A DNA stretch of 64,000 bases from Thermoplasmatota archaeon (GTDB lineage Archaea > Thermoplasmatota > E2 > JACPAO01 > JAHFTW01), in NCBI GenBank assembly GCA_038046725.1, contig JBBSVQ010000040.1, forward strand, positions 9,526 to 73,525, written 5' to 3'. The notes under the pieces were generated by a model. That model ran no database searches. It was not told the DNA's origin and saw only the letters and a program-made list of their open reading frames with translations. Positions 4,274 to 62,980 of this stretch are shown here, piece by piece. Positions within the stretch are counted from its first letter, which is position 1, and every line of letters starts with the position of its first letter. The translations under genes and the position numbers were made by a program.

Positions 4274-4359
4274 CCACGAGCCACGGATTGCACGGATGCG
4301 CACGGACCGTCGTTTCCGCGCCAATCCGTCGTTTCCGCGCCAATCCGTGCAATCCGTGG
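4274..4359. repeat. 9-nt-unit hairpin element, CACGGAT variant, with internal 19-nt tandem duplication
   Basis: CCACGGATT-GCACGGATG-CGCACGGAC ... CCAATCCGT-GCAATCCGTGG. The sequence CCGTCGTTTCCGCGCCAAT occurs twice in tandem (4307-4325, 4326-4344). Confidence 0.7.
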
Positions 4360-10221: not shown

Positions 10222-10282
10222 GGCGGTCGGGATGGGCGCGTCAAGTCGCGGGGTGATGAACCTGCCGCGTCGGGCCGGCCGG

Positions 10283-10346
10283 GCCGCAGAGAAACGTAGA
10301 GCAATCGCGAACCGGTCTCGTCTGCGTCCTCTGCGTTCTCTGCGGC
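10283..10346. repeat. 9-nt-unit hairpin element, GCAGAG variant (left arm degenerate)
   Basis: GCCGCAGAG-AAACGTAGA-GCAATCGCG ... TCTCGTCTG-CGTCCTCTG-CGTTCTCTGCGGC. Confidence 0.55.
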
Positions 10347-10373
10347 TCGTCGAACCCCCTCGGTAGCTTGACC

Positions 10374-11593: not shown

Positions 11594-11641
11594 GCTCGGG
11601 AGAGGGGGAGGCGGTTCAAGGCCGTGGCGCTCGCCGCCCAA

Positions 11642-11797
11642 CAATCCGCCGATGACGCCGATGAACGATTCCCACATCGGCGGGTTCGGCGTCATCGCGG
11701 GTTCGTCGCTGCATGGCGAACCCATCCACCGATGACACCGATGCCCACCGATGAACGGTCACCGCATCGGTGCCATCGGTGGGAATCGGTGGATCGG
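11642..11797. repeat. Double hairpin composite (CGCCGATG hairpin + CACCGATG hairpin)
   Basis: Its reverse complement aligns by eye along its whole length with 62799-62960. Confidence 0.8.
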
Positions 11798-12094: not shown

Positions 12095-12200
12095 GGGCGG
12101 TCCACCTCGGGAACCCTCATCAGGAAAGCGCTTCCGCACGACCCGACGAGTCCCGGATTTCGCAGAGCGCCGCAGAACGCAACGCCCGCAAATCTCCAGG

Positions 12201-12403
12201 GGCGCGCGTTCCTGGCCCCGCCGTTCCCACGTCTCCCGACGCCGACGTCGGCGACTTGCTCCACAACCATTTCCCGAAGCGCCGCGCGAAGCGCGGCGAG
12301 GCGGCGCCCCGCGCCCGCCCAGGTTTGCATTCATCGGTTTGAGGTCGCGGTCGGAGTCGTCGTCGGAAGGAGGTTGACTGGCGAGGGTCACCGAACGGGC
12401 GCC
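12201..12403 (+). mobile_element. MITE-like repeat core, copy B
   Basis: Same termini and internal hairpins as copy A, aligned by eye. Confidence 0.65.
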
Positions 12404-12900: not shown

Positions 12901-12959
12901 GAGGACCCGATGGTCGTCCCTCGGGCAAGAACGTTGCGCTTGCCGTGGGGCCGACCGGA

Positions 12960-13015
12960 CCACGACTTGCACGAAGGCCACGAACCAGGCTTCGTGCGGT
13001 TCGTGCAATTCGTGG
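12960..13015. repeat. 9-nt-unit hairpin element, CACGAA variant
   Basis: CCACGACTT-GCACGAAGG-CCACGAACC aggc TTCGTGCGG-TTCGTGCAA-TTCGTGG. Lies between divergent gene starts. Confidence 0.8.
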
Positions 13016-13074
13016 TTGGTGAAGGATGGCGCCCGTGCGAAAAAGGCCTTCACCGACGCCCCCCTGGCCATGGC

Positions 13075-16581: not shown

Positions 16582-16661
16582 GTCATCGGTGGGCATCGGT
16601 GACATCGGTGGATGGCCTTGCCAGGAGCGGGCCAATCCAGATGACACCGAGGTCACCGATG
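16582..16661. repeat. 9-nt-unit hairpin element, CACCGATG variant (GGATGG/CCAATCC next to loop)
   Basis: GTCATCGGTGG-GCATCGGTG-ACATCGGTGGATGG ... CCAATCCAGATG-ACACCGAGG-TCACCGATG. Confidence 0.8.
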
Positions 16662-27554: not shown

Positions 27555-27636
27555 CCTCGGTGCCCTCGGTGGGCATCGGTGGATGGTTCAGACTCTTCAC
27601 TCGCCCATCCACCGATGGCACCGATGCCCACCGATG
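27555..27636. repeat. 9-nt-unit hairpin element, CACCGATG variant
   Basis: CCTCGGTGC-CCTCGGTGG-GCATCGGTGGATGG ... CCATCCACCGATG-GCACCGATG-CCCACCGATG. Confidence 0.8.
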
Positions 27637-29856: not shown

Positions 29857-29937
29857 TCATCGGTGGGCATCGGTGACATCGGTGGATGGGCCTGGCATGG
29901 GTCTGACCATCCACCGATGACACCGATGTCACCGATG
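29857..29937. repeat. 9-nt-unit hairpin element, CACCGATG variant
   Basis: TCATCGGTGG-GCATCGGTG-ACATCGGTGGATGG ... CCATCCACCGATG-ACACCGATG-TCACCGATG. Confidence 0.85.
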
Positions 29938-31106: not shown

Positions 31107-31283
31107 GCGCCCGTTCCTGGCCCTACAAGTCAACCTCCTTGTGGCGCCGACTCCGACGACGAGGTCAAGCCGCTGAAGGCATGTCTTGGCGGCGCGGGGC
31201 GCCGCCTCGACGCATGATGCCTGGGCAAGTCGCCGCCGTCGGCGTCGGAAGGCGTTGGGTGGTCCCGAGGAGGAACGCGCGCC
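31107..31283 (-). mobile_element. MITE-like repeat core, copy E
   Basis: Reverse orientation. Ends GGAACGCGCGCC. Part of a composite spanning about 30968-31337. Confidence 0.6.
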
Positions 31284-31360
31284 GTCACGTCTTGCGCACG
31301 GAGCCCGGGCATCTGCGGGACTCTGCGAAATCCGTGGCTCGTCGGGGGTTGGGTCGCGCT

Positions 31361-35072: not shown

Positions 35073-35154
35073 CATCGGTGACATCGGTGTCATCGGTGGA
35101 TGGTCTGGCGCGTTGGCGGGCCCATCCACCGATGCGCACCGATACCCACCGATG
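35073..35154. repeat. 9-nt-unit hairpin element, CACCGATG variant
   Basis: CATCGGTG-ACATCGGTG-TCATCGGTGGATGG ... CCATCCACCGATG-CGCACCGAT-ACCCACCGATG. Lies between the ABC-F stop and the moeB-like start. Confidence 0.85.
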
Positions 35155-37730: not shown

Positions 37731-39422
37731 CTAGGGTTCCGGCGTGCCGAACTTGCCGGCCAGGCGGGAGCCCTTCGGCCAGCCACCGGACGTCGCCTGC
37801 ACCTCGAGGCCGGGCCGGATGGCGCCCGTCGGGCACGCATCGAAGCAGGCGCCGTCGGCGATGCACAAGTCGCGATCCACGCGGGCCATGTCGGTGACGA
37901 TGGCGGCGTCCGTGGGGCATGCGGCTTGGCAGCCGTTGCACACGATGCAGTCCGCGGCGAGCACCCAGGCCTTCTTCTCCTCCGGGAGGGTCTTGGCGAA
38001 GGCCTTCACTGCGGGAACGTCCTTCGGGTTGCCAGTGAACTTGCCACCGACAGCCTCGGGCGCGACAACCGCCGCGGGGCTCGACGCGGGCGTGGGCGGA
38101 GCCGGCGTGGCCGCGGGGGCCTTCGCCTGCTTGGGCGCCTCGTGCACGACGGGCGATGCCGCCTGCGGCACAGAGCCCACAGAGGACACCGAGTCAGACT
38201 TCTGCGCGCTCTGTGCCTTGGGGAGCGGGGTAGCCGCGGTCCCCGGCGGGGGCACGGCGGCCGGCTTGGTTCCCGACTTCACCGCGCGCTCGGCGGCGGC
38301 CTGACGGTCGGCGTCGAGGGTGTCCTTCGTGGGCACCATCCACTTGGCGGTGGCGAGCTTGCGTTTGTTGGCCTCCGCGATGAGGGCGTCCACGTGGCCC
38401 TTCCAGTCGCCGACGAGGCCGAGATCGGAGTACTGGAAGATGGCGGCGCTCGGGTCGGAGTTGATGGCGATGATGGTGCCCGACTCCTTCATGCCCTCGA
38501 TGTGCTGGATGGCGCCGGAGATGCCGACGGCGATGTACAGCTTGGGACGGACCGAGATGCCGGTCTGGCCGACTTGGCGGCCGCGCTCCATCCAGCCCTT
38601 GTCGGCGACGGGGCGCGAGCAGGCGACTTGGCCTCCCAGGGCCTGGGCGAGCTCCTCGAGCTTGGCGAAGCCTTCCGGGCCGCCGATGCCGACGCCGCCG
38701 GCGACGAGGACGTCGGCCTTCGTGATGTCGGCCTTGACGTCATCGACGACGTAGGAGATGACTTGGGCGGCGTACGTCTTGCCGTCGAGCCACTTCGTGT
38801 CGGCGTTGTGCACCTTGCCCGACCGCTTGGTGTCGGGGTGGAGGGGCTTGAAGATGCCGGGGCGCGCCGTGGCCATCTGGGGGCGGTGGCGGTCGCAGCG
38901 AATGGTGGCGAGCATTTTGCCGCCGAAGGCCGGGCGGCGGGCGAGGAGTTCGCCGTTGACGGCGTCGACGTCGAGTTCCGTGCAGTCGGCCGTCATGCCG
39001 GCGTCAAGGGTCGCGGCCACGCGGGACGAGATGTCGCGGCCGGTGTGCGTGGCGCCGATGAGGACGATGTTGGGCTTGTGTTGCTCGATGAGGGCGTTCA
39101 GGACGTCCGTCGAGGGGCGGGCCAGGGGGGTCTTCAGGACAGGGTGCTGCGCCAGGATGACTTCGTCGGCGCCCGCGTGCAGGCACTGGGCGGCGAGGTC
39201 GGTGACTTGGTGGCCAAGGATGACGGCGGTGACCTTGTGGTGCAGCTTCTCCGCCATGGGGCGCGCGGCGCCGAGCAGTTCGAGGGTGACCGGGCGCAGT
39301 TGGCCGTCGCGGTGCTCCACGATGACCCAGACGCCCTTCCAGTCCGCGAAGGAGTCGCAGGGTTTGCAGGCGCGGAACTGGATGGCGTCGTAGCGGCTCC
39401 CCTTGCGACGGGACCGATCCAC
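37731..39422 (-). CDS. etfA: Electron transfer flavoprotein alpha subunit fused to a C-terminal 2x[4Fe-4S] ferredoxin domain
   Basis: ORF 37731..39512. EtfA core (AVGISGAIQHIEGMKESGTIIAIN), then a 110-aa Ala/Pro-rich linker or so, then CIVCNGCQAACP...CIADGACFDACP. GTG 39422 chosen, start uncertain; upstream codons are hairpin repeat. Confidence 0.85.
   Translation of the reverse strand: MDRSRRKGSRYDAIQFRACKPCDSFADWKGVWVIVEHRDGQLRPVTLELLGAARPMAEKLHHKVTAVILGHQVTDLAAQCLHAGADEVILAQHPVLKTPLARPSTDVLNALIEQHKPNIVLIGATHTGRDISSRVAATLDAGMTADCTELDVDAVNGELLARRPAFGGKMLATIRCDRHRPQMATARPGIFKPLHPDTKRSGKVHNADTKWLDGKTYAAQVISYVVDDVKADITKADVLVAGGVGIGGPEGFAKLEELAQALGGQVACSRPVADKGWMERGRQVGQTGISVRPKLYIAVGISGAIQHIEGMKESGTIIAINSDPSAAIFQYSDLGLVGDWKGHVDALIAEANKRKLATAKWMVPTKDTLDADRQAAAERAVKSGTKPAAVPPPGTAATPLPKAQSAQKSDSVSSVGSVPQAASPVVHEAPKQAKAPAATPAPPTPASSPAAVVAPEAVGGKFTGNPKDVPAVKAFAKTLPEEKKAWVLAADCIVCNGCQAACPTDAAIVTDMARVDRDLCIADGACFDACPTGAIRPGLEVQATSGGWPKGSRLAGKFGTPEP
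38167..38217. repeat. 9-nt-unit hairpin element, GCAGAG/CACAGAG variant, inside the etfA linker coding region
   Basis: GGCACAGAG-CCCACAGAG-GACACCGAG tcag ACTTCTGCG-CGCTCTGTGCC. Translated on the minus strand as KAQSAQKSDSVSSVGSVPQ. Confidence 0.7.
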
Positions 39423-39490
39423 CGATGACACCGATGTCACCGATGCGGTTGCCGTGCCGGCCATCGGTGTCATCGGTGACATCGGTGGAT
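39416..39490. repeat. 9-nt-unit hairpin element, CACCGATG variant (ATCC ends distal)
   Basis: ATCCACCGATG-ACACCGATG-TCACCGATG cggttgccgtgccggc CATCGGTG-TCATCGGTG-ACATCGGTGGAT. Lies between etfB and etfA. Confidence 0.9.
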
Positions 39491-39508
39491 TCGTTTCGTG
39501 GGCGGGAG

Positions 39509-40414
39509 TCACTGGCCCACGCTCCCGCGTGTGAACAGTTCATTGACGAGTTCGCCGGCGTTACCGAGTTTCTTTGCGTGGCGCTCGAAACCGCTCGAGA
39601 TATCGACCTTGCCGACGATGGTGGGGCTGCCCTTGAGGCCGACCCAGGAAGGGTCCTTGATGTCGGTCAGGTCCGCGAGGCTCCAGACGACGAGTTGCGT
39701 CTGGGCGCCCTTGACTTTGCCGTTGAGGGTGGCGATGCGCGGCGTGTTGATCTTCAACTCGCACGTCAAGGCGACGGGCAGCGGGAGGCGGAGGGTCTCG
39801 TGGCCGCCGCCGATGGAACGGACCGCGGTCACGGTCTCGGACACCGGGTCGAACTCGGCGCTGTGGATGTAGGTCGCCTGCTCGGTGTCGAGTTGGCCTG
39901 CGACGCCGGGGCCGACTTGGCCCGTGGAGGCGTCCGTGGTCTCCTCGCCGAAGAGGATGATGTCGACGTCGCCCCAGGTCTTGCTGATCTTCTTGATGCC
40001 GGCCGAGAGCGTCATGCTCGTCGGCCAAGTGTCGGCGCCGGCAAAGGCACGGTCCGTGATGAGCACGCCGCGGTCGGCGCCGCGGGCGACGCATTCGCGC
40101 AGCATGATGTCGAAGAACGGGGGGCCCATGGTGACCACAGAGACCTGGGCGCCGAAGCGGTCCTTGAACTGCAAGGCCATCTCGAAGGCGTTCTCGTCGG
40201 GGGGGTTGATGATGTTCTTGACCTTGGTGCGGTCGAGCGTCTTCTTGACGGGATCGATGGTCAAGTCGGTGGCGTCCGGCGTCATCTTCATGCAGACGAC
40301 GACGTGCAGCGGGCGGCCGAGCGAAGGGATGTTGACGGGCTGCGAGACCCTGCGGCTGGCGGCCTGCGGGGTTCCCTTTTGGGCTCCGTTGCTCGACGGG
40401 GGGACCGAAGTCAT
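39509..40414 (-). CDS. etfB: Electron transfer flavoprotein beta subunit
   Basis: ORF track. VVVCMKMTPD...NPPDENAFEMAL...DIILFGEETTD, typical EtfB. N-terminal extension of about 35 aa. Confidence 0.9.
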   Translation of the reverse strand: MTSVPPSSNGAQKGTPQAASRRVSQPVNIPSLGRPLHVVVCMKMTPDATDLTIDPVKKTLDRTKVKNIINPPDENAFEMALQFKDRFGAQVSVVTMGPPFFDIMLRECVARGADRGVLITDRAFAGADTWPTSMTLSAGIKKISKTWGDVDIILFGEETTDASTGQVGPGVAGQLDTEQATYIHSAEFDPVSETVTAVRSIGGGHETLRLPLPVALTCELKINTPRIATLNGKVKGAQTQLVVWSLADLTDIKDPSWVGLKGSPTIVGKVDISSGFERHAKKLGNAGELVNELFTRGSVGQ

Positions 40415-43713: not shown

Positions 43714-43786
43714 GGATTGCGGTGATGACGGTGACGCCGGCCCTGGCTCGGCGCACCCCATCACTGGGCATCACCGGAATCACTGG
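43714..43786. repeat. 9-nt-unit hairpin element, GGTGAT/ATCACY variant
   Basis: GGATTGCGGTGATG-ACGGTGACG ... CCATCACTG-GGCATCACC-GGAATCACTGG. About 18 of 24 positions are complementary by eye. Confidence 0.6.
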
Positions 43787-52016: not shown

Positions 52017-52274
52017 ATGCCAGCAACCCTTGAGGAAAACGCCTTGCTCGCCTACGTGAAGGACCGCAAGCAGACGACGGCCAGCCGCGACGCGCGGCTC
52101 CGGACTTACGGGTCCACCGCCATGGAATCTTTGGGAATTGCGATGCTGATTGCGGGCTTCGCGATCGGCCTGTCTGCGACCTTCTTCAGCCCCCTTGTCG
52201 CCATGGCCCTGTTGGCAGCTGCGTGCACGGCAGTCATCCTCATCATCCGGTCCAACAAGAAGGAGGCCGCCTGA
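52017..52274 (+). CDS. Small 2-TM membrane protein (85 aa)
   Basis: ORF track. Starts 1 nt after the micro-ORF stop. AGGAGG in its last codons, ahead of the next ATG. Confidence 0.55.
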   Translation: MPATLEENALLAYVKDRKQTTASRDARLRTYGSTAMESLGIAMLIAGFAIGLSATFFSPLVAMALLAAACTAVILIIRSNKKEAA

Positions 52275-53476: not shown

Positions 53477-53546
53477 GAACCACGAAACCCACGAAGCGCA
53501 CGAACGAGAGCGCAGCGCTTCGTGCGTTTCGTGCAATTCGTGGTTC
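53477..53546. repeat. 9-nt-unit hairpin element, CACGAA variant
   Basis: GAACCACGAAA-CCCACGAAG-CGCACGAAC ... CTTCGTGCG-TTTCGTGCA-ATTCGTGGTTC. Lies between E1beta and E2. Confidence 0.85.
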
Positions 53547-53563: not shown

Positions 53564-55000
53564 ATGACATTCCAATTCAAGCTGCCCGACATCGGCGAAG
53601 GAATCCAAGAGGGCGAAATCGTCCGCTGGATCAAGAACGAGGGCGACGCCGTCAAGGAAGACGAGCCCATCGTCGAAGTCATGACGGACAAGGCCACCGT
53701 CGAGTTGACCAGCCCGCGCAAGGGCGTCATCAAGAAGTGCCACTTCGCCGAGGGCGACATGGCGAAGGTCGGCCAAGTCATCGTCGAGATCGAGGAAGGC
53801 GCGACTGCCAATCCGACGGAGCCACAGAGCGCGCAGAGTCCGCAGACAACGTCTTCTGCGACCTCTGCGGGCTCTGCGGCCCCGGCGAAGTCCGCCGCCA
53901 AGGACGCCAAGGCCGAGTCCAAACCCGAGGCCAAGAAGGAGGAAAAGGAGGAAAAGACCCTCTTCGAGCTCCCCAAGGAGATGGCCGCAGCGACGAAGGT
54001 CATCAACCGGCGCGGAGCCGCCCCGTCGGCCCCGGCCCAGCCCTCCGCGCCCACCAAGCCGGCTGTGCCATCCGGCTACAAGGCCACGGCCGCGCCCGCC
54101 GTGCGCCGCTACGCCCGCGAGAAGGGCATCGACCTCAACCAGGTCCTCGGCACCGGCCAAAATGGCCGCGTGACCCGGGAAGACCTCGACGCGTTCCAGT
54201 CGGGCGGCGCCCGCGCGCCGCAGGACGCCCCCGCCCCGATGGCCGTCGGCGGTGCCCGCTTTGGGTACACCGACGTCAAGTACAGCACGAACCCGGCCCT
54301 CGAGGAGCGCGTGCCGCTGCGCGGCCTGCGCCGCACCATCTCGAAGGCGATGGAGCGCTCGAAGTTCACGGCGACGCACTTCACGTACGTCGCGGAAGTG
54401 GACTGCGACAACCTCGTTCGCCTGCGCGACTCCGCCAAGAAGGTCGCCGATGAGCGCGGCGTGAAGCTCACCTTCATGCCGTTCTTCGTCAAGGCCGCCG
54501 TCGCGGCGCTCAAGCGCCACCCGGACGTCAACGTCGCCTTCGACGAGAACACCTCCGAGATTGTCAAGAAGAAGTACTGGCACATCGGCGTCGCCACGGC
54601 CACGGACGCGGGCCTCATCGTTCCCGTCGTGAAGGACGCGGACCGCAAGGGCGTCCTCGACATCGCCCGCGAAGTGGCGGACCTGTCGGAGCGAACCAAG
54701 GCCGGCAAGGCCAAGCTCGAGGAGCTCACCGGCTCGACGTTCAGCATCACGAGCCTCGGCAAGCTCGGTGGTGTCCTGGCCACGCCCATCCTGAACTACC
54801 CCGAGGTCGCCATCATGGGCGTCCACGAGATGAAGCAGGTCCCCGTCGTCAAGGAGGGCCAACTTGCCATCGGTTGGCGCATGAACCTGAGCTTCACCTT
54901 CGACCACCGCATCGTCGACGGCTACAACGGCGCCATGTTCGCCAACACCCTCGTCTCCTACCTCGAGGACCCCCAGCTCCTCCTGCTGGAGAGTCTCTGA
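53564..55000 (+). CDS. Dihydrolipoamide acyltransferase E2
   Basis: ORF 53522..55000 with internal ATG 53564, GGAGG 9 nt upstream. Lipoyl domain ([11 protein letters not shown]), PSBD ([14 protein letters not shown]), catalytic DHRIVDG. Confidence 0.93.
53808..53880. repeat. 9-nt-unit hairpin element, GCAGAG variant, inside the E2 linker coding region
   Basis: CCAATCC...GCCACAGAG-CGCGCAGAG-TCCGCAGAC aacg TCTTCTGCG-ACCTCTGCG-GGCTCTGCGGC. Translated as [20 protein letters not shown]. Confidence 0.8.
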
Positions 55001-60580: not shown

Positions 60581-60646
60581 GAACCACGAATTGCACGAAG
60601 GCCACGAACCGCGACGGTTTCGTGCATTTCGTGCCATTCGTGGTTC
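60581..60646. repeat. 9-nt-unit hairpin element, CACGAA variant
   Basis: GAACCACGAAT-TGCACGAAG-GCCACGAAC cgcgacgg TTTCGTGCA-TTTCGTGCC-ATTCGTGGTTC. Lies between argJ and argB. Confidence 0.9.
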
Positions 60647-61489: not shown

Positions 61490-61503
61490 TGCACGCCCGC
61501 CCA

Positions 61504-61562
61504 GCCGCGAATTTCGCGAAGGACCGCGAAGCCCTGTTCGCGCTTTTCGCGCAATTCGCGGC
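61504..61562. repeat. 9-nt-unit hairpin element, CGCGAA variant
   Basis: GCCGCGAAT-TTCGCGAAG-GACCGCGAAG ccctg TTCGCGCTT-TTCGCGCAA-TTCGCGGC. Lies between argB and argD. Confidence 0.85.
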
Positions 61563-61583
61563 TTCGTCGTCGGGGGTCGCCGC

Positions 61584-62798: not shown

Positions 62799-62960
62799 CA
62801 ATCCACCGATGCCCACCGATGGCACCGATGCGGTTCCCCATCGGTGGAAATCGGTGTCATCCGTGGATGGGTCCGTCGTGCCGCGACAATCCGCCGATGA
62901 CGCCGAACCCGCCGATGCAGGAATCGTTCATCGGCGATATCGGCGTCATCGGCGGATTGG
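62799..62960. repeat. Double hairpin composite (CACCGATG hairpin + CGCCGATG hairpin)
   Basis: CAATCCACCGATG-CCCACCGATG-GCACCGATG ... GGATGG, then CAATCCGCCGATG-ACGCCGAAC-CCGCCGATG ... CATCGGCGGATTGG. It is the inverted counterpart of 11642-11797. Confidence 0.85.
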
Positions 62961-62980
62961 GTCGGCTGGTCGCGACGCGC

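Follow-up and report, generated by a model that had tools for sequence, protein, structure and literature searches.

The E2 dihydrolipoamide acyltransferase gene of this Thermoplasmatota archaeon contains, in the stretch that encodes the linker between the lipoyl domain and the PSBD, a segment that can be read both as peptide and as a palindrome built from 9-nt units. This raises the question of whether the segment is ordinary linker sequence, a structure kept for a function of its own, or a repeat of non-coding type which entered a protein gene and was tolerated there. We analysed it within the window, by which we mean the whole 64-kb stretch of DNA studied, and all positions given below are positions in the window.

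The palindromic segment of the E2 linker

A previous sequence-only reading of this DNA had described a 3 x 9-nt inverted repeat inside the gene, preceded by CAATCC, and the letters agree with that description. As first read, the left arm comprises GCCACAGAG (53821-53829), CGCGCAGAG (53830-53838) and TCCGCAGAC (53839-53847), followed by aacg (53848-53851) and by the right-arm units TCTTCTGCG (53852-53860), ACCTCTGCG (53861-53869) and GGCTCTGCGGC (53870-53880); the CAATCC of the left flank is read directly. Repeat finding delimits a longer inverted repeat (53814-53887), with arms of 33 nt that are 82% complementary and a loop of 8 nt, and inclusion of the outer degenerate units brings each arm to about four units (Table 1). 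Tandem Repeats Finder reports a period of 9, with 3.0 copies, at 53855-53881. The complete element measures approximately 75-80 nt, and its right terminus has decayed to GGCCCC, where GGATTG would match CAATCC.

Folded as RNA, the element reaches -51.3 kcal/mol, compared with -32.3 +/- 3.2 kcal/mol for 200 dinucleotide shuffles, none of which was as good (z -5.95), and the z-scores for folding as DNA are -5.93 for the + strand and -6.12 for the - strand. The whole window is without a match in Rfam 15 at the gathering score, and 53807-53892 gives only generic hairpin matches far under threshold.

The host gene begins at ATG 53564 and not at the GTG 53522 of the ORF list, and its orthologues all begin at the corresponding Met; the protein is 100% identical to that of a Thermoplasmatota MAG (P0001). 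Counted from this ATG, the codons from 53807 encode in frame 27 residues (82-108), located between the Pfam domains Biotin_lipoyl and E3_binding. In the AF2 prediction, residues 83-165 stay under a pLDDT of 50 and form no secondary structure, in line with the earlier placement of the predicted translation in a flexible linker after the lipoyl domain, and this region is hypervariable across a 40-sequence alignment.

Four of the six Ser codons in the segment are TCT, a codon that accounts for 2.7% of Ser codons in the genes of the window (binomial tail 8e-6); three lie in the right arm and the fourth in the loop, at 53852-53854. Left-arm CAG pairs with this rare codon in the right arm, while in relatives left-arm CCG pairs with right-arm TCG. 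Ranked by codon typicality among 27-codon windows, the segment belongs to the lowest 1.2%. The segment is shown to be shaped by palindromy and not by codon preference. A Ser/Ala/Gln-rich linker of the usual kind, palindromic by chance through its repeated codons, could have been expected given that E2 linkers are of low complexity and vary in every lineage. However, the strength of the fold, the presence of TCT exactly where pairing needs it, the significant similarity of the segment to non-coding copies described below and the linkers of more distant E2 proteins (L001, L002 and L003), which are plain Ala/Pro sequence lacking a hairpin (z -0.1 to -1.3), already refute this reading, to which we give practically no weight.

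The 9-nt period had been proposed to render such insertions frame-neutral, which holds for the gain or loss of units only. Among the six possible frames of the element, the one used is the only one that yields a peptide without hydrophobic residues, without Cys and with only 2 charged residues, and the choice of frame therefore looks filtered by selection rather than free.

A superfamily of periodic hairpins

Hairpins of the same 3 x 9-nt superfamily are present in at least 16 copies in the 64-kb window, most of them at gene boundaries (Table 1). Every kind of boundary is occupied, with the flanking genes in any orientation. An element detector found 14 clusters in the 64 kb, against approximately none in Markov simulations, and a single cluster in 1.37 Mb of E2 loci (mostly bacterial, with a few from distant archaea). 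Across the superfamily, elements measure about 55-90 nt and each arm consists of 3-4 tandem 9-nt units. Two further candidates for copies inside ORFs, 43720-43776 and 12959-13016, were rejected, as both lie upstream of the real starts.

Table 1 Positions of the E2 gene, the parts of its palindrome and the related elements in the window.
Feature	Position	Strand	Details
E2 dihydrolipoamide acyltransferase gene, host of the element	53564-55000	+	Pfam lipoyl 4-76, E3_binding 176-208, catalytic 247-475
E2 element, left terminus	53809-53814	+	CAATCC; intergenic copies share a (C/G)AA(T/C)C-C terminus
E2 element, left arm	53814-53846	+	units CCGACGGAG / CCACAGAGC / GCGCAGAGT / CCGCAGA; 11 residues encoded
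E2 element, loop	53847-53854	+	CAACGTCT
E2 element, right arm	53855-53887	+	units TCTGCGACC / TCTGCGGGC / TCTGCGGCC / CCGGCG
Element between convergent genes	4282-4358		CACGGAT core
Intergenic family-C element	10283-10346		core CGCAGAG / CTCTGCG
Two adjacent elements	11641-11791		CGCCGATG core, then CACCGATG core
Family-B element	12959-13016		upstream of real start of DUF255-like gene
Family-A element, other arrangement	16584-16661		CATCGGTG arm first, GGATGG..CCAATCC at loop
Family-A element, other arrangement	27557-27634
Family-A element, other arrangement	29858-29937
Family-A element, other arrangement	35073-35154
Element directly after etfA-ferredoxin stop codon	37626-37730		CGCCGATG core
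Family-C in-frame element, EtfA-ferredoxin linker	38167-38217	-	gene 37731-39422 (-); read as AQSAQKSDSVSSVGSV; z -3.5
Family-A element, etfB stop to conserved etfA start	39408-39499		CACCGATG / CATCGGTG
Weaker element upstream of FKBP gene	43720-43776		CGGTGAT / ATCAC
Family-B element, E1beta/E2 spacer	53477-53546		core CCACGAA / TTCGTGG; fills spacer
argJ/argB spacer element	60581-60646		family B
argB/argD spacer element	61503-61563		CCGCGAA core
Two adjacent elements between convergent genes	62803-62966		CACCGATG core, then CGCCGATG core

The E2 element aligns locally to the copies at 10283-10346 and 38167-38217 with scores of 21 and 21, compared with a mean of 8.2 and a maximum of 15 in shuffles (z 8-9; none of 500 as good). 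Smith-Waterman comparisons with window positions 10278-10352 and 38158-38226, with copies from two other genomes (L170 and L171) and with one from Gemmatirosa gave z values of 8-16, again with none of 500 shuffles as good, and those with families A and B gave values of about 1. By this measure, the E2 element is a member of the CGCAGAG/CTCTGCG family (family C). The architecture had been said to match that of intergenic elements, and the scaffold is indeed shared, but one of the copies compared, at 38167-38217, sits within a gene rather than between genes, in frame between the ETF_alpha (232-312) and Fer4 (489-536) domains (Pfam) of the EtfA-ferredoxin protein. The element at 39408-39499 is also open and in frame with etfA, whose annotated GTG start lies inside the right terminus of the element.

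The E2 element and 23 others that we collected align on one scaffold of 3x9 nt, loop and 3x9 nt. Their termini read AAYCC...GGRTT and, like the spacers, are common to distant loci, to different genomes and even to an archaeon and a bacterium. The window E2 element has the left end and, on the right, the decayed GGCCCC, and the orthologous element of L082 has both ends (ATCC...GGAT). A C-R-C-(N)-G-A skeleton is shared by the cores, and the spacers are kept across core variants.

Comparison with relatives indicates how these elements may have reached their sites. In the window they occupy the E1beta/E2, etfB/etfA, argB/argD and argJ/argB spacers. In relatives, the counterparts of these filled spacers overlap or measure at most about 15 nt: the E1beta/E2 spacer is approximately 10-15 nt in seven relatives, and argB and argD overlap (L167) or lie a few nt apart (L168). 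The exception is argJ/argB, a plain 88-nt spacer in L167. The filled spacers also bear extra flanking sequence that is common to several copies. In these comparisons of filled and empty spacers, the elements behave as insertions. Neither a transposase nor a candidate mobilising gene was found in the window, Pfam scans of its approximately 44 ORFs included, and no target-site duplication was visible when the filled E1beta/E2, etfB/etfA and argB/argD spacers were compared with empty ones, whose flanks have also changed. An autonomous parent with the same termini was likewise found neither in the window nor in the relatives' loci examined. With no mobilising gene found in the window and no target-site duplication visible, mobility is inferred from presence and absence only.

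We consider it very unlikely that the E2 palindrome arose in place, through slippage that gave the 9-nt units and a template switch during replication that gave the inverted copy, with a convergent likeness to the intergenic elements. Nearly every locus does have its own core variant, the same variant runs through all units of an element, as homogenisation in place predicts, and such an origin is consistent with the lack of a transposase in the window ORFs and of target-site duplications at the filled spacers. However, it is opposed by the termini and spacers common to distant loci and to archaeon and bacterium, by the similarity between genes and between genomes, by the presence of several copies of one family in one genome and by the extra flanking sequence of the filled spacers.

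Age and upkeep of the in-frame copies

A search of genome contigs with the E2 alignment gave at least five useful Thermoplasmatota loci among the matches listed; a metagenome search with a lineage-specific E2 fragment was unusable, since relatives reached at most 41% identity among the matches listed. Of the seven E2 orthologues closest to that of the window (among the matches listed), six have an element at this site, with cores that differ and arms that match. In L082, L083, L084 and L166 the codon register is also the same, with cores CGCCGAG, CCGAG, CGCCGATG and CGCCGA, and the element of L165 aligns to that of the window almost without gaps (score 34, z 13.6). The E2 proteins form a 7-member clade with 95% bootstrap support, in which L081, the sister of L083 (100% bootstrap), has kept a remnant of the left arm and lost the right arm. 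The hairpin z-scores within the clade range from -6.8 to -1.5, with those of L083 and L165 decayed to about -2, a spread which indicates that the hairpin is tolerated rather than required.

Judging from this distribution, the E2 element is an old copy and not a recent insertion, inherited vertically since at least the ancestor of the 7-member clade. The expectation that the segment is an insertion relative to orthologues is thus borne out by the plain linkers of the distant E2 proteins and by the shared site in the closest clade, with the correction that the event is old. Where DNA suffices (L082, L168 and L003 at E2 loci; L170 at ETF loci), relatives that share the segment carry the repeat family as well, so the case that would have pointed to ordinary linker sequence did not arise, and the palindrome in the E2 linker lies far outside what chance gives.

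In-frame copies are also found in other genes. The EtfA-ferredoxin linkers of L169, L170 and L171, genomes which are only about 75% identical in protein, carry in-frame elements with z-scores of approximately -6, and many ETF orthologues have no hairpin. Further in-frame elements lie in a second E2 linker, in L168, and at the N-terminus of EtfA in L171. Together with the family similarity and the TCT codons, these copies support the proposal that an element of non-coding type is tolerated as linker peptide.

The E2 segment is probably an old, small palindromic repeat of the REP/MITE kind, in frame, tolerated in the linker and with its arms matched at the level of DNA. The superfamily would have colonised the gene boundaries of a soil Thermoplasmatota lineage, with copies surviving where the peptide is harmless, as in disordered stretches between domains and in N-terminal tails. 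The E2 copy would have entered the lipoyl-to-PSBD linker in the ancestor of the closest clade and descended vertically since, and its predicted translation, about 27 polar or small residues, may act as a spacer like an ordinary Ala/Pro linker. Complementarity of the arms may be maintained by processes acting on DNA: one arm may template the correction of the other, slippage may occur between 9-nt units, and other copies may perhaps contribute through conversion. Selection on protein or RNA structure would not be needed, and decay or loss of the hairpin in some relatives would follow. Side effects may include an mRNA hairpin of approximately -50 kcal/mol which ribosomes have to unwind, and a cluster of rare codons.

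The aligned elements show how closely the arms change together. With the register set by hand (RNAalifold, run on the same 24-element alignment, picked a register one unit off), 83.8% of cells are paired, compared with 69.8% in shuffles, none of 500 of which reach this value, and with 31-42% when partners are slid; changes on both sides affect 104 cells, against 41 in shuffles. Only about 12 of 536 cells are G-U pairs, a near-absence that is more in keeping with a palindrome of DNA than with a structured RNA.

Passive residence nevertheless has weak points. The same linker site holds differing cores with well-matched arms in many lineages, both in the E2 clade and in the ETF copies with z-scores near -6, and the in-frame E2 and ETF copies score 31 with each other, against 20-21 with intergenic copies. 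Long neutral residence is a poor fit to such recurrence at one site, which could reflect repeated re-insertion, conversion or selection on the hairpin. The last of these belongs to an explanation which we regard as unlikely, namely that the hairpin is a selected cis-element and not a passenger: an RNA that pauses ribosomes after the lipoyl domain and aids co-translational folding, or that acts in mRNA processing or stability, or else an RNA or DNA site for a host factor that reads the 9-nt units, in which case intergenic and viral copies would serve the same factor and linkers would have recruited them. Hairpins that stay paired at equivalent linker positions across lineages although their sequences differ, compensatory changes that hit all units of an element together, and a shared core skeleton with conserved spacers, as would suit protein recognition, all favour selection. 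On the other side, the hairpin is dispensable, being lost in L081 and decayed in L083 and L165, and the E2 linkers of L001-L003, like many ETF orthologues, do without it; the scarcity of G-U pairs and the equal folding of both strands point to palindromy of DNA rather than to an RNA fold; and elements occupy any gene boundary irrespective of the orientation of the flanking genes.

The superfamily extends to the cultured bacterium Gemmatirosa kalamazoonensis (Gemmatimonadota) and to tailed-virus contigs, one of which (L184) has an element in each of five intergenic spacers, an arrangement that would suit a cis-element and is suggestive of a functional role for the hairpins. No match to the viral-contig element was found in the phage GenBank collection. 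The family-A pattern CACCGATGNCACCGATGNCACCGATG also occurs in viral contigs, but in low-GC contigs only and with no inverted partner, and was read as unrelated. A bolder proposal, possible but more doubtful than not, is that soil Thermoplasmatota, Gemmatirosa and tailed viruses share an undescribed superfamily whose 9-nt units are read by a putative dedicated protein or nuclease, with one specificity per core; the elements that recur, their pairing intact, in the same E2 and EtfA-ferredoxin linkers would in that case be actively maintained or recruited, for instance to signal a translational pause or processing, rather than passively tolerated.

Relation to known repeats and significance

In the literature, we found no description of the superfamily or of an archaeal counterpart inside genes, and no relevant repeat from Thermoplasmatota or Gemmatirosa. 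The sequence-only reading drew a parallel with the palindromic elements of Rickettsia (RPEs; Ogata et al. 2000), and in both groups the palindrome does occur outside coding sequence as well as in frame within genes. Both groups lie between genes and also in permissive regions of unrelated housekeeping genes, and have several sequence families per genome. RPEs are given a length of about 100-150 bp and a conserved encoded peptide in PMC10969869. In the same account RPEs are not composed of short tandem units, as opposed to the 3-4 tandem 9-nt units per arm found here, and the E2 element, compared by description and not by sequence, is outside their length range (PMC10969869). The families described here also differ from each other at one or two core positions, altered in all units together, and they are hosted by an archaeal lineage, by a bacterium of the Gemmatimonadota and by tailed viruses.

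REPs and REPINs (PMC3116915, PMC3733652, PMC12306157) are likewise short G+C-rich palindromes, present in many copies at the ends of genes and within operons, with inverted pairs, long vertical inheritance and several families per genome. REPs measure 20-40 nt, seldom overlap coding sequence, depend on a RAYT gene and have been described chiefly in bacteria. One of their ends carries the tetranucleotide GTAG or CGTC as a tag (PMC3733652), whereas our elements lack this tag and have AAYCC/GGRTT termini and periodic arms. Furthermore, no RAYT-like gene was found among the approximately 44 window ORFs scanned with Pfam.

Archaeal MITEs are known from Sulfolobus, Halobacterium and Haloquadratum; MITEs are also small non-autonomous repeats with inverted termini at many loci, and some of them are fused in frame to ORFs of the host (PMC10969869). 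However, a MITE is flanked by target-site duplications and has a parent insertion sequence that can be recognised (PMC10969869), neither of which we found, and our elements consist of a single hairpin throughout. Integron attC sites were rejected, because some left termini fit the RYYYAAC of their R''/R' boxes but the right termini are not GTTRRRY and attC is not periodic; CRISPR repeats, iterons or origin boxes and intrinsic terminators were set aside on the 9-nt period, the occupation of all kinds of boundary and the absence of a T-run.

For the upkeep of the arms, one parallel is the template-switch correction of quasi-palindromes in bacteria. Another is the arm-to-arm gene conversion of Y-chromosome palindromes (PMC4233959). 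In both, a change copied from arm to arm gives 'compensatory' changes without selection on structure; these are mutational processes and not element families, and their action here is our inference.

The elements have consequences for annotation, as they create spurious ORF extensions and alternative starts, such as the GTG 53522 of the E2 gene and the annotated etfA start, and place stretches of rare codons in otherwise well-adapted genes. The periodic arms, the family cores, the conserved termini, the abundance of elements in uncultured soil archaea and their occurrence in the cultured Gemmatirosa and in virus contigs make the mechanism testable. Orthologous in-frame copies with co-changing arms are a natural experiment that could set homogenisation of DNA against selection on RNA structure. 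If our reading is true, selfish palindromes within protein genes would extend from Rickettsia to archaea, and flexible linkers and N-terminal tails would be the sites of the proteome where such DNA persists.

The palindromic segment of the E2 linker

The product of the E2 gene is 100% identical to P0001, a dihydrolipoamide acetyltransferase from a Thermoplasmatota MAG, and genes for eRF1 and an ABCE1/RLI-type protein, likewise in the window, show the contig to be archaeal. As the N-terminus, M(T) followed by 11 residues, is common to all E2 orthologues, the true start is ATG 53564 and not the GTG at 53522 chosen by the ORF caller. The sequence of 53808-53880 transcribed in the sequence-only reading matches the DNA exactly, and an inverted-repeat search extended the repeat to arms of 33 nt with 82% complementarity, separated by 8 nt. 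A 91-nt stretch folds as RNA at -51.3 kcal/mol, where 200 dinucleotide shuffles average -32.3 ± 3.2 (z -5.95, 0/200). Folded as DNA it has z -5.93 on the + strand and -6.12 on the - strand, while Tandem Repeats Finder reports period 9 (3.0 copies, 53855-53881). The hairpin first noticed in the sequence alone is borne out by these arms, a folding z of about -6 and the period of 9; both hairpin and period are genuine rather than due to chance.

The element codes for 27 residues (82-108) lying between the Biotin_lipoyl and E3_binding domains, and its placement in the lipoyl-to-PSBD linker was correct. In an AlphaFold2 model (40 orthologues), residues 83-165 lack secondary structure and stay under pLDDT 50. 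The Ser codon TCT accounts for 4/6 in the segment versus 2.7% in the genes of the window (binomial tail 8e-6), AGT, ACA, CCA and AAT are also used, and in synonymous-codon typicality the segment ranks among the lowest 1.2% of 27-codon windows. Its rare codons coincide exactly with those that pair with CAGAG in the opposite arm: the sequence of this segment is shaped by the palindrome, not by translation. Among the six reading frames through the element, only the one used yields no hydrophobic residues, no Cys and just two charged residues, and we infer that the segment is translated and neutral for E2.

Further along the same linker, a motif of 17 residues is invariant or nearly so in 40/40 orthologues. 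It lies mid-linker in hypervariable surroundings, has low pLDDT and no Pfam match, and may be a lineage-specific docking motif.

A superfamily of hairpins that behave as insertions

Three scans (for inverted repeats, for hairpins, and for k-mers repeated at 9-10 nt with their reverse complement nearby) agree on at least 16 hairpins in the window, with about three 9-nt units per arm. The k-mer detector found 14 clusters in 64 kb at its strict setting versus ~0 in Markov-1 simulations, and 17 versus 0-6 at a looser one. The cores define families, while termini follow the form (C/G)AA(T/C)C-C ... G-G(A/G)TT(G/C) and inter-unit spacers are kept across core variants (GAA-TTG-CxCGAA-GG-CCxCGAA in CACGAA, CGCGAA and CACGGA elements). 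Convergent, divergent and tandem gene boundaries alike carry elements. No Rfam family matched them, and no transposase was found among the ~44 window ORFs scanned. Elements 43720 and 12959 were rejected as intra-ORF copies, both lying upstream of real starts.

Family A occurs in two arrangements, with termini outside or at the loop; therefore the basic unit may be a half-element (a terminus plus three units), and half-elements may pair head to head or tail to tail. In the CACGGAT-core element, a 19-nt stretch of the right half is perfectly duplicated in tandem, which suggests that units expand by slippage. Separately, a repeat of ~115 nt, whose start contains two CGCAGA units, has two inverted copies 19 kb apart (77% identical over the aligned stretch), each upstream of a gene; it may represent a further repeat family, or else a leader or regulatory region that the two genes have in common.

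The elements act like insertions: the junctions that they fill in the window are mostly short or overlapping in relatives. The E1beta stop and E2 start are separated by ~10-15 nt in seven relatives (TGAGGTCATGAGATG) and by 120 nt in the window, where a CCACGAA hairpin is found; the loci of two relatives, L166 and L168, have other, different elements at this junction. Three more junctions are listed in the table. No target-site duplication was evident at filled junctions compared with relatives. Between etfB and etfA, the reading frame of etfA stays open through the element (..NPPMSPMTPMAGTATASVTSVSSVD..), whose right terminus contains the annotated etfA GTG start (39422). This element may provide etfA with its start codon or with an N-terminal extension. 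A small ORF of 85 aa, its C-terminal half hydrophobic, is situated between E1alpha and E1beta, where three relatives have gene calls of 55-67 aa.

Positions of the elements and associated features (window coordinates unless a locus is named)
Feature	Position	Core or sequence	Observation
E2 gene	53564-55000 (+)		Pfam (residues): Biotin_lipoyl 4-76; E3_binding 176-208; catalytic domain 247-475
E2 element arms	53814-53846, 53855-53887
17-residue motif	53942-54010		E2 residues ~127-149
Family A		CACCGATG, CGCCGATG	about ten copies
Family A, arrangement 2 (termini at loop)	16584-16661, 27557-27634, 29858-29937, 35073-35154
Family A, arrangement 1	39417-39490		ATCC termini outside
Family A, arrangement 2		CATCGGTG..GGATGG-loop-CCATCC..CACCGATG	termini at loop
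Family B	12959, 53477, 60581	CCACGAA
Variant core	61503	CCGCGAA
Variant core	4282	CACGGAT
Family C	10283, 38167, E2 copy	CGCAGAG
19-nt duplication	4307-4348	CCGTCGTTTCCGCGCCAAT	2.2 copies, 100% match
~115-nt repeat	12140-12255 (+), 31240-31355 (-)	CCCGACGAG.C.CGGATTTCGCAGAG..CCGCAGA
E1beta/E2 junction	53477-53546	CCACGAA
etfB/etfA junction	39408-39512 (- strand gene start)	CACCGATG	~105 extra nt; overlapping in relatives
argB/argD junction		CCGCGAA	~95 extra nt; overlapping in L167, few nt in L168
argJ/argB junction		CCACGAA	~150 nt; 8 nt in L168, plain 88-nt spacer in L167
Small ORF	52017-52274 (+)
Called genes, same site	L082 8667-8846, L167 8807-9010, L168 8766-8933
Intergenic, relatives	L003 11411-11464, L170 4768-4824, L168 6425-6503	CGCAGAT or CGCGAA
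Viral contig L181	7288-7359
Viral contig L184	959-1018, 3466-3568, 3980-4029, 4225-4294, 8990-9090
Gemmatirosa L206	2535-2611, 11250-11323, 12970-13099, 14089-14216	CGCAGAGGA, ACGCGGAGA, GGACAGGAT	termini GAACC..GGTTC

With the strict detector, density is 2.2 clusters per 10 kb in the window and 0-1.7 in relatives, with 1 cluster in total in 1.37 Mb of E2 loci (mostly bacterial and a few distant archaeal). Intergenic elements with CGCAGAT or CGCGAA cores in relatives show the family to be present across the lineage, more sparsely than in the window; the one in L003 lies directly 3' of the E2 stop codon. The CGCAGA hairpin pattern matches four IMG/VR contigs. Hairpins of the form ATCC-(GCAGATTAC)x3 ... 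(ATCTGCGNA)x3-GGAT occur in tailed-virus contigs: L181, whose genes include those for a phage capsid protein and a cement protein, L184 (IMGVR_UViG_3300035701_004545), with a tail-like 1560-residue ORF, an Ig-domain protein and five elements in five intergenic spacers, and L204, in which CGCAGAT and CGCGGAT cores are mixed; the half-element ATCCGCAGATTNCGCAGATTNCNCAGAT was found in 23 stretches of viral contigs. BLAST against a plasmid collection led to plasmid 1 of Gemmatirosa kalamazoonensis KBS708, a cultured soil bacterium (Gemmatimonadota, 72% GC), with four elements in 20 kb (NZ_CP007129.1, 915506-935534), one of which, GAACCGCAGAGGACGCAGAGGACGCAGAGGAG..TCCTCTGCGTCCTCTGCGTCCTCTGCGGTTC, has the termini and core of family C. 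Because this plasmid carries the same 3 x 9-nt hairpins, the superfamily spans archaea and bacteria.

Kinship and age of the in-frame copies

By Smith-Waterman alignment, the E2 element scores 21 against both the window copy at 38158-38226 in the linker of the EtfA-ferredoxin fusion gene (ETF; z 9) and the intergenic copy at 10278-10352 (z 8), 23 and 31 against the ETF-linker elements of L170 (z 12) and L171 (z 16), and 20 against the Gemmatirosa element (z 8), where shuffles average ~8 with maxima of 13-16 and 0/500 reach the observed scores. The proposed relation to 10283-10346 and 38167-38217 is upheld by these alignments. Families A and B have no significant primary-sequence similarity to the E2 element (z ~1), and the likeness to them is of architecture only.

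We compared the best 75-nt window of each E2 linker in the window and eleven other E2 genes. Elements occupy the window's E2 site, in its codon register, in L082, L083, L084, L165 and L166. In a codon-based NJ tree (394 gap-free codon columns) these five, L081 and the window form a clade with 95% bootstrap support. Within it L081 pairs with L083 as sister (100% bootstrap) and keeps a left-arm remnant without loop and right arm; L167, outside the clade, has three CGCAGAG left-arm units and one right-arm unit only. The most parsimonious account is one ancient insertion, divergence in place, and decay or loss in some lines.

Folding and elements of E2 and ETF linkers
Linker	Fold z	Element
E2, window	-6.8
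E2, L084	-4.2	core CGCCGATG/CATCGGCG, read as SMSPMT..ASAPSAPS
E2, L082	-3.5	ATCCGCCGAGTGCGCCGAGCACGGCC..TCGGCGCCGTCGGCGGGGTCGGCGGAT, complete, ATCC..GGAT termini, core CGCCGAG/TCGGCG
E2, L166	-3.1	core CGCCGA/TCGGCG, left end GCC AAT, like window
E2, L168	-2.4
E2, L165	-2.2	near-gapless alignment to window's (score 34, z 13.6); mixed cores, weaker hairpin
E2, L083	-2.1	core CCGAG/CTCGG
E2, L081	-1.5
E2, L167	-1.5
E2, L001	-1.3
E2, L002	-0.7
E2, L003	-0.1
ETF, L169	-6.1	ACCACGGAA x3 / TTCCGTGG x3
ETF, L170	-6.4	two tandem CGCAGA elements
ETF, L171	-6.1	GAACCACAGAA..CTCTGTGGTTC

Between the window and L082, left-arm CCG-to-CAG changes are matched by right-arm TCG-to-TCT changes, which are synonymous and toward the rare codon. 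In a 24-element alignment with the true register supplied by hand, standard pairs fill 83.8% of cells against 69.8% in shuffles (0/500 reach this) and 31-42% with slid partners, and both-side changes fill 104 cells against 41, figures which describe the family and are not proof of selection, as the control has a known weakness, in that relatedness alone can beat shuffles without structure. These statistics, the scarcity of G-U pairs (about 12/536 cells) and the equal folding of both strands favour pairing that is maintained in the DNA over a selected sense-RNA fold, and we infer that arm matching is maintained by DNA-level correction.

Other in-frame copies were found. The copy at 38167-38217 lies in the EtfA-ferredoxin inter-domain linker of a minus-strand fusion gene, in the register of the E2 copy (AQSAQKSDSVSSVGSV), and linker peptides of the type Q..Q..Q / S(A/V)xS(A/V)GS(A/V) occur in at least 8 of 48 ETF orthologues whose linkers were compared. 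In L168, a CGCAGA element lies within the latter part of the E2 linker, immediately ahead of the E3-binding domain (PTQPQIPQTSQNASASAQSAV), and the peptides of P0034, P0045, P0062 and P0063 suggest the same for them. EtfA of L171 begins MAATTTQPQKPQNPQNGGSV, and here an in-frame element encodes the N-terminus.

REPs have been described, among them archaeal cases detected by RepRanger (PMC12306157), and REPIN/RAYT systems are described in bacteria. A limited literature search, which is no proof that the elements are undescribed, found neither the element strings nor such repeats in Thermoplasmatota or Gemmatirosa. In R. conorii, Rickettsia palindromic elements (RPEs), which measure about 150 bp and form ten families, have inserted 44 times into metabolic genes (ORFs) that are unrelated to one another (PMC10969869). 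The likeness lies in a palindromic element tolerated in frame as peptide, here in the E2 linker, and the sequence-only reading of a non-coding-type palindrome of this kind is supported, with one correction: the E2 copy is ancient and vertically inherited, and its arms have changed together.
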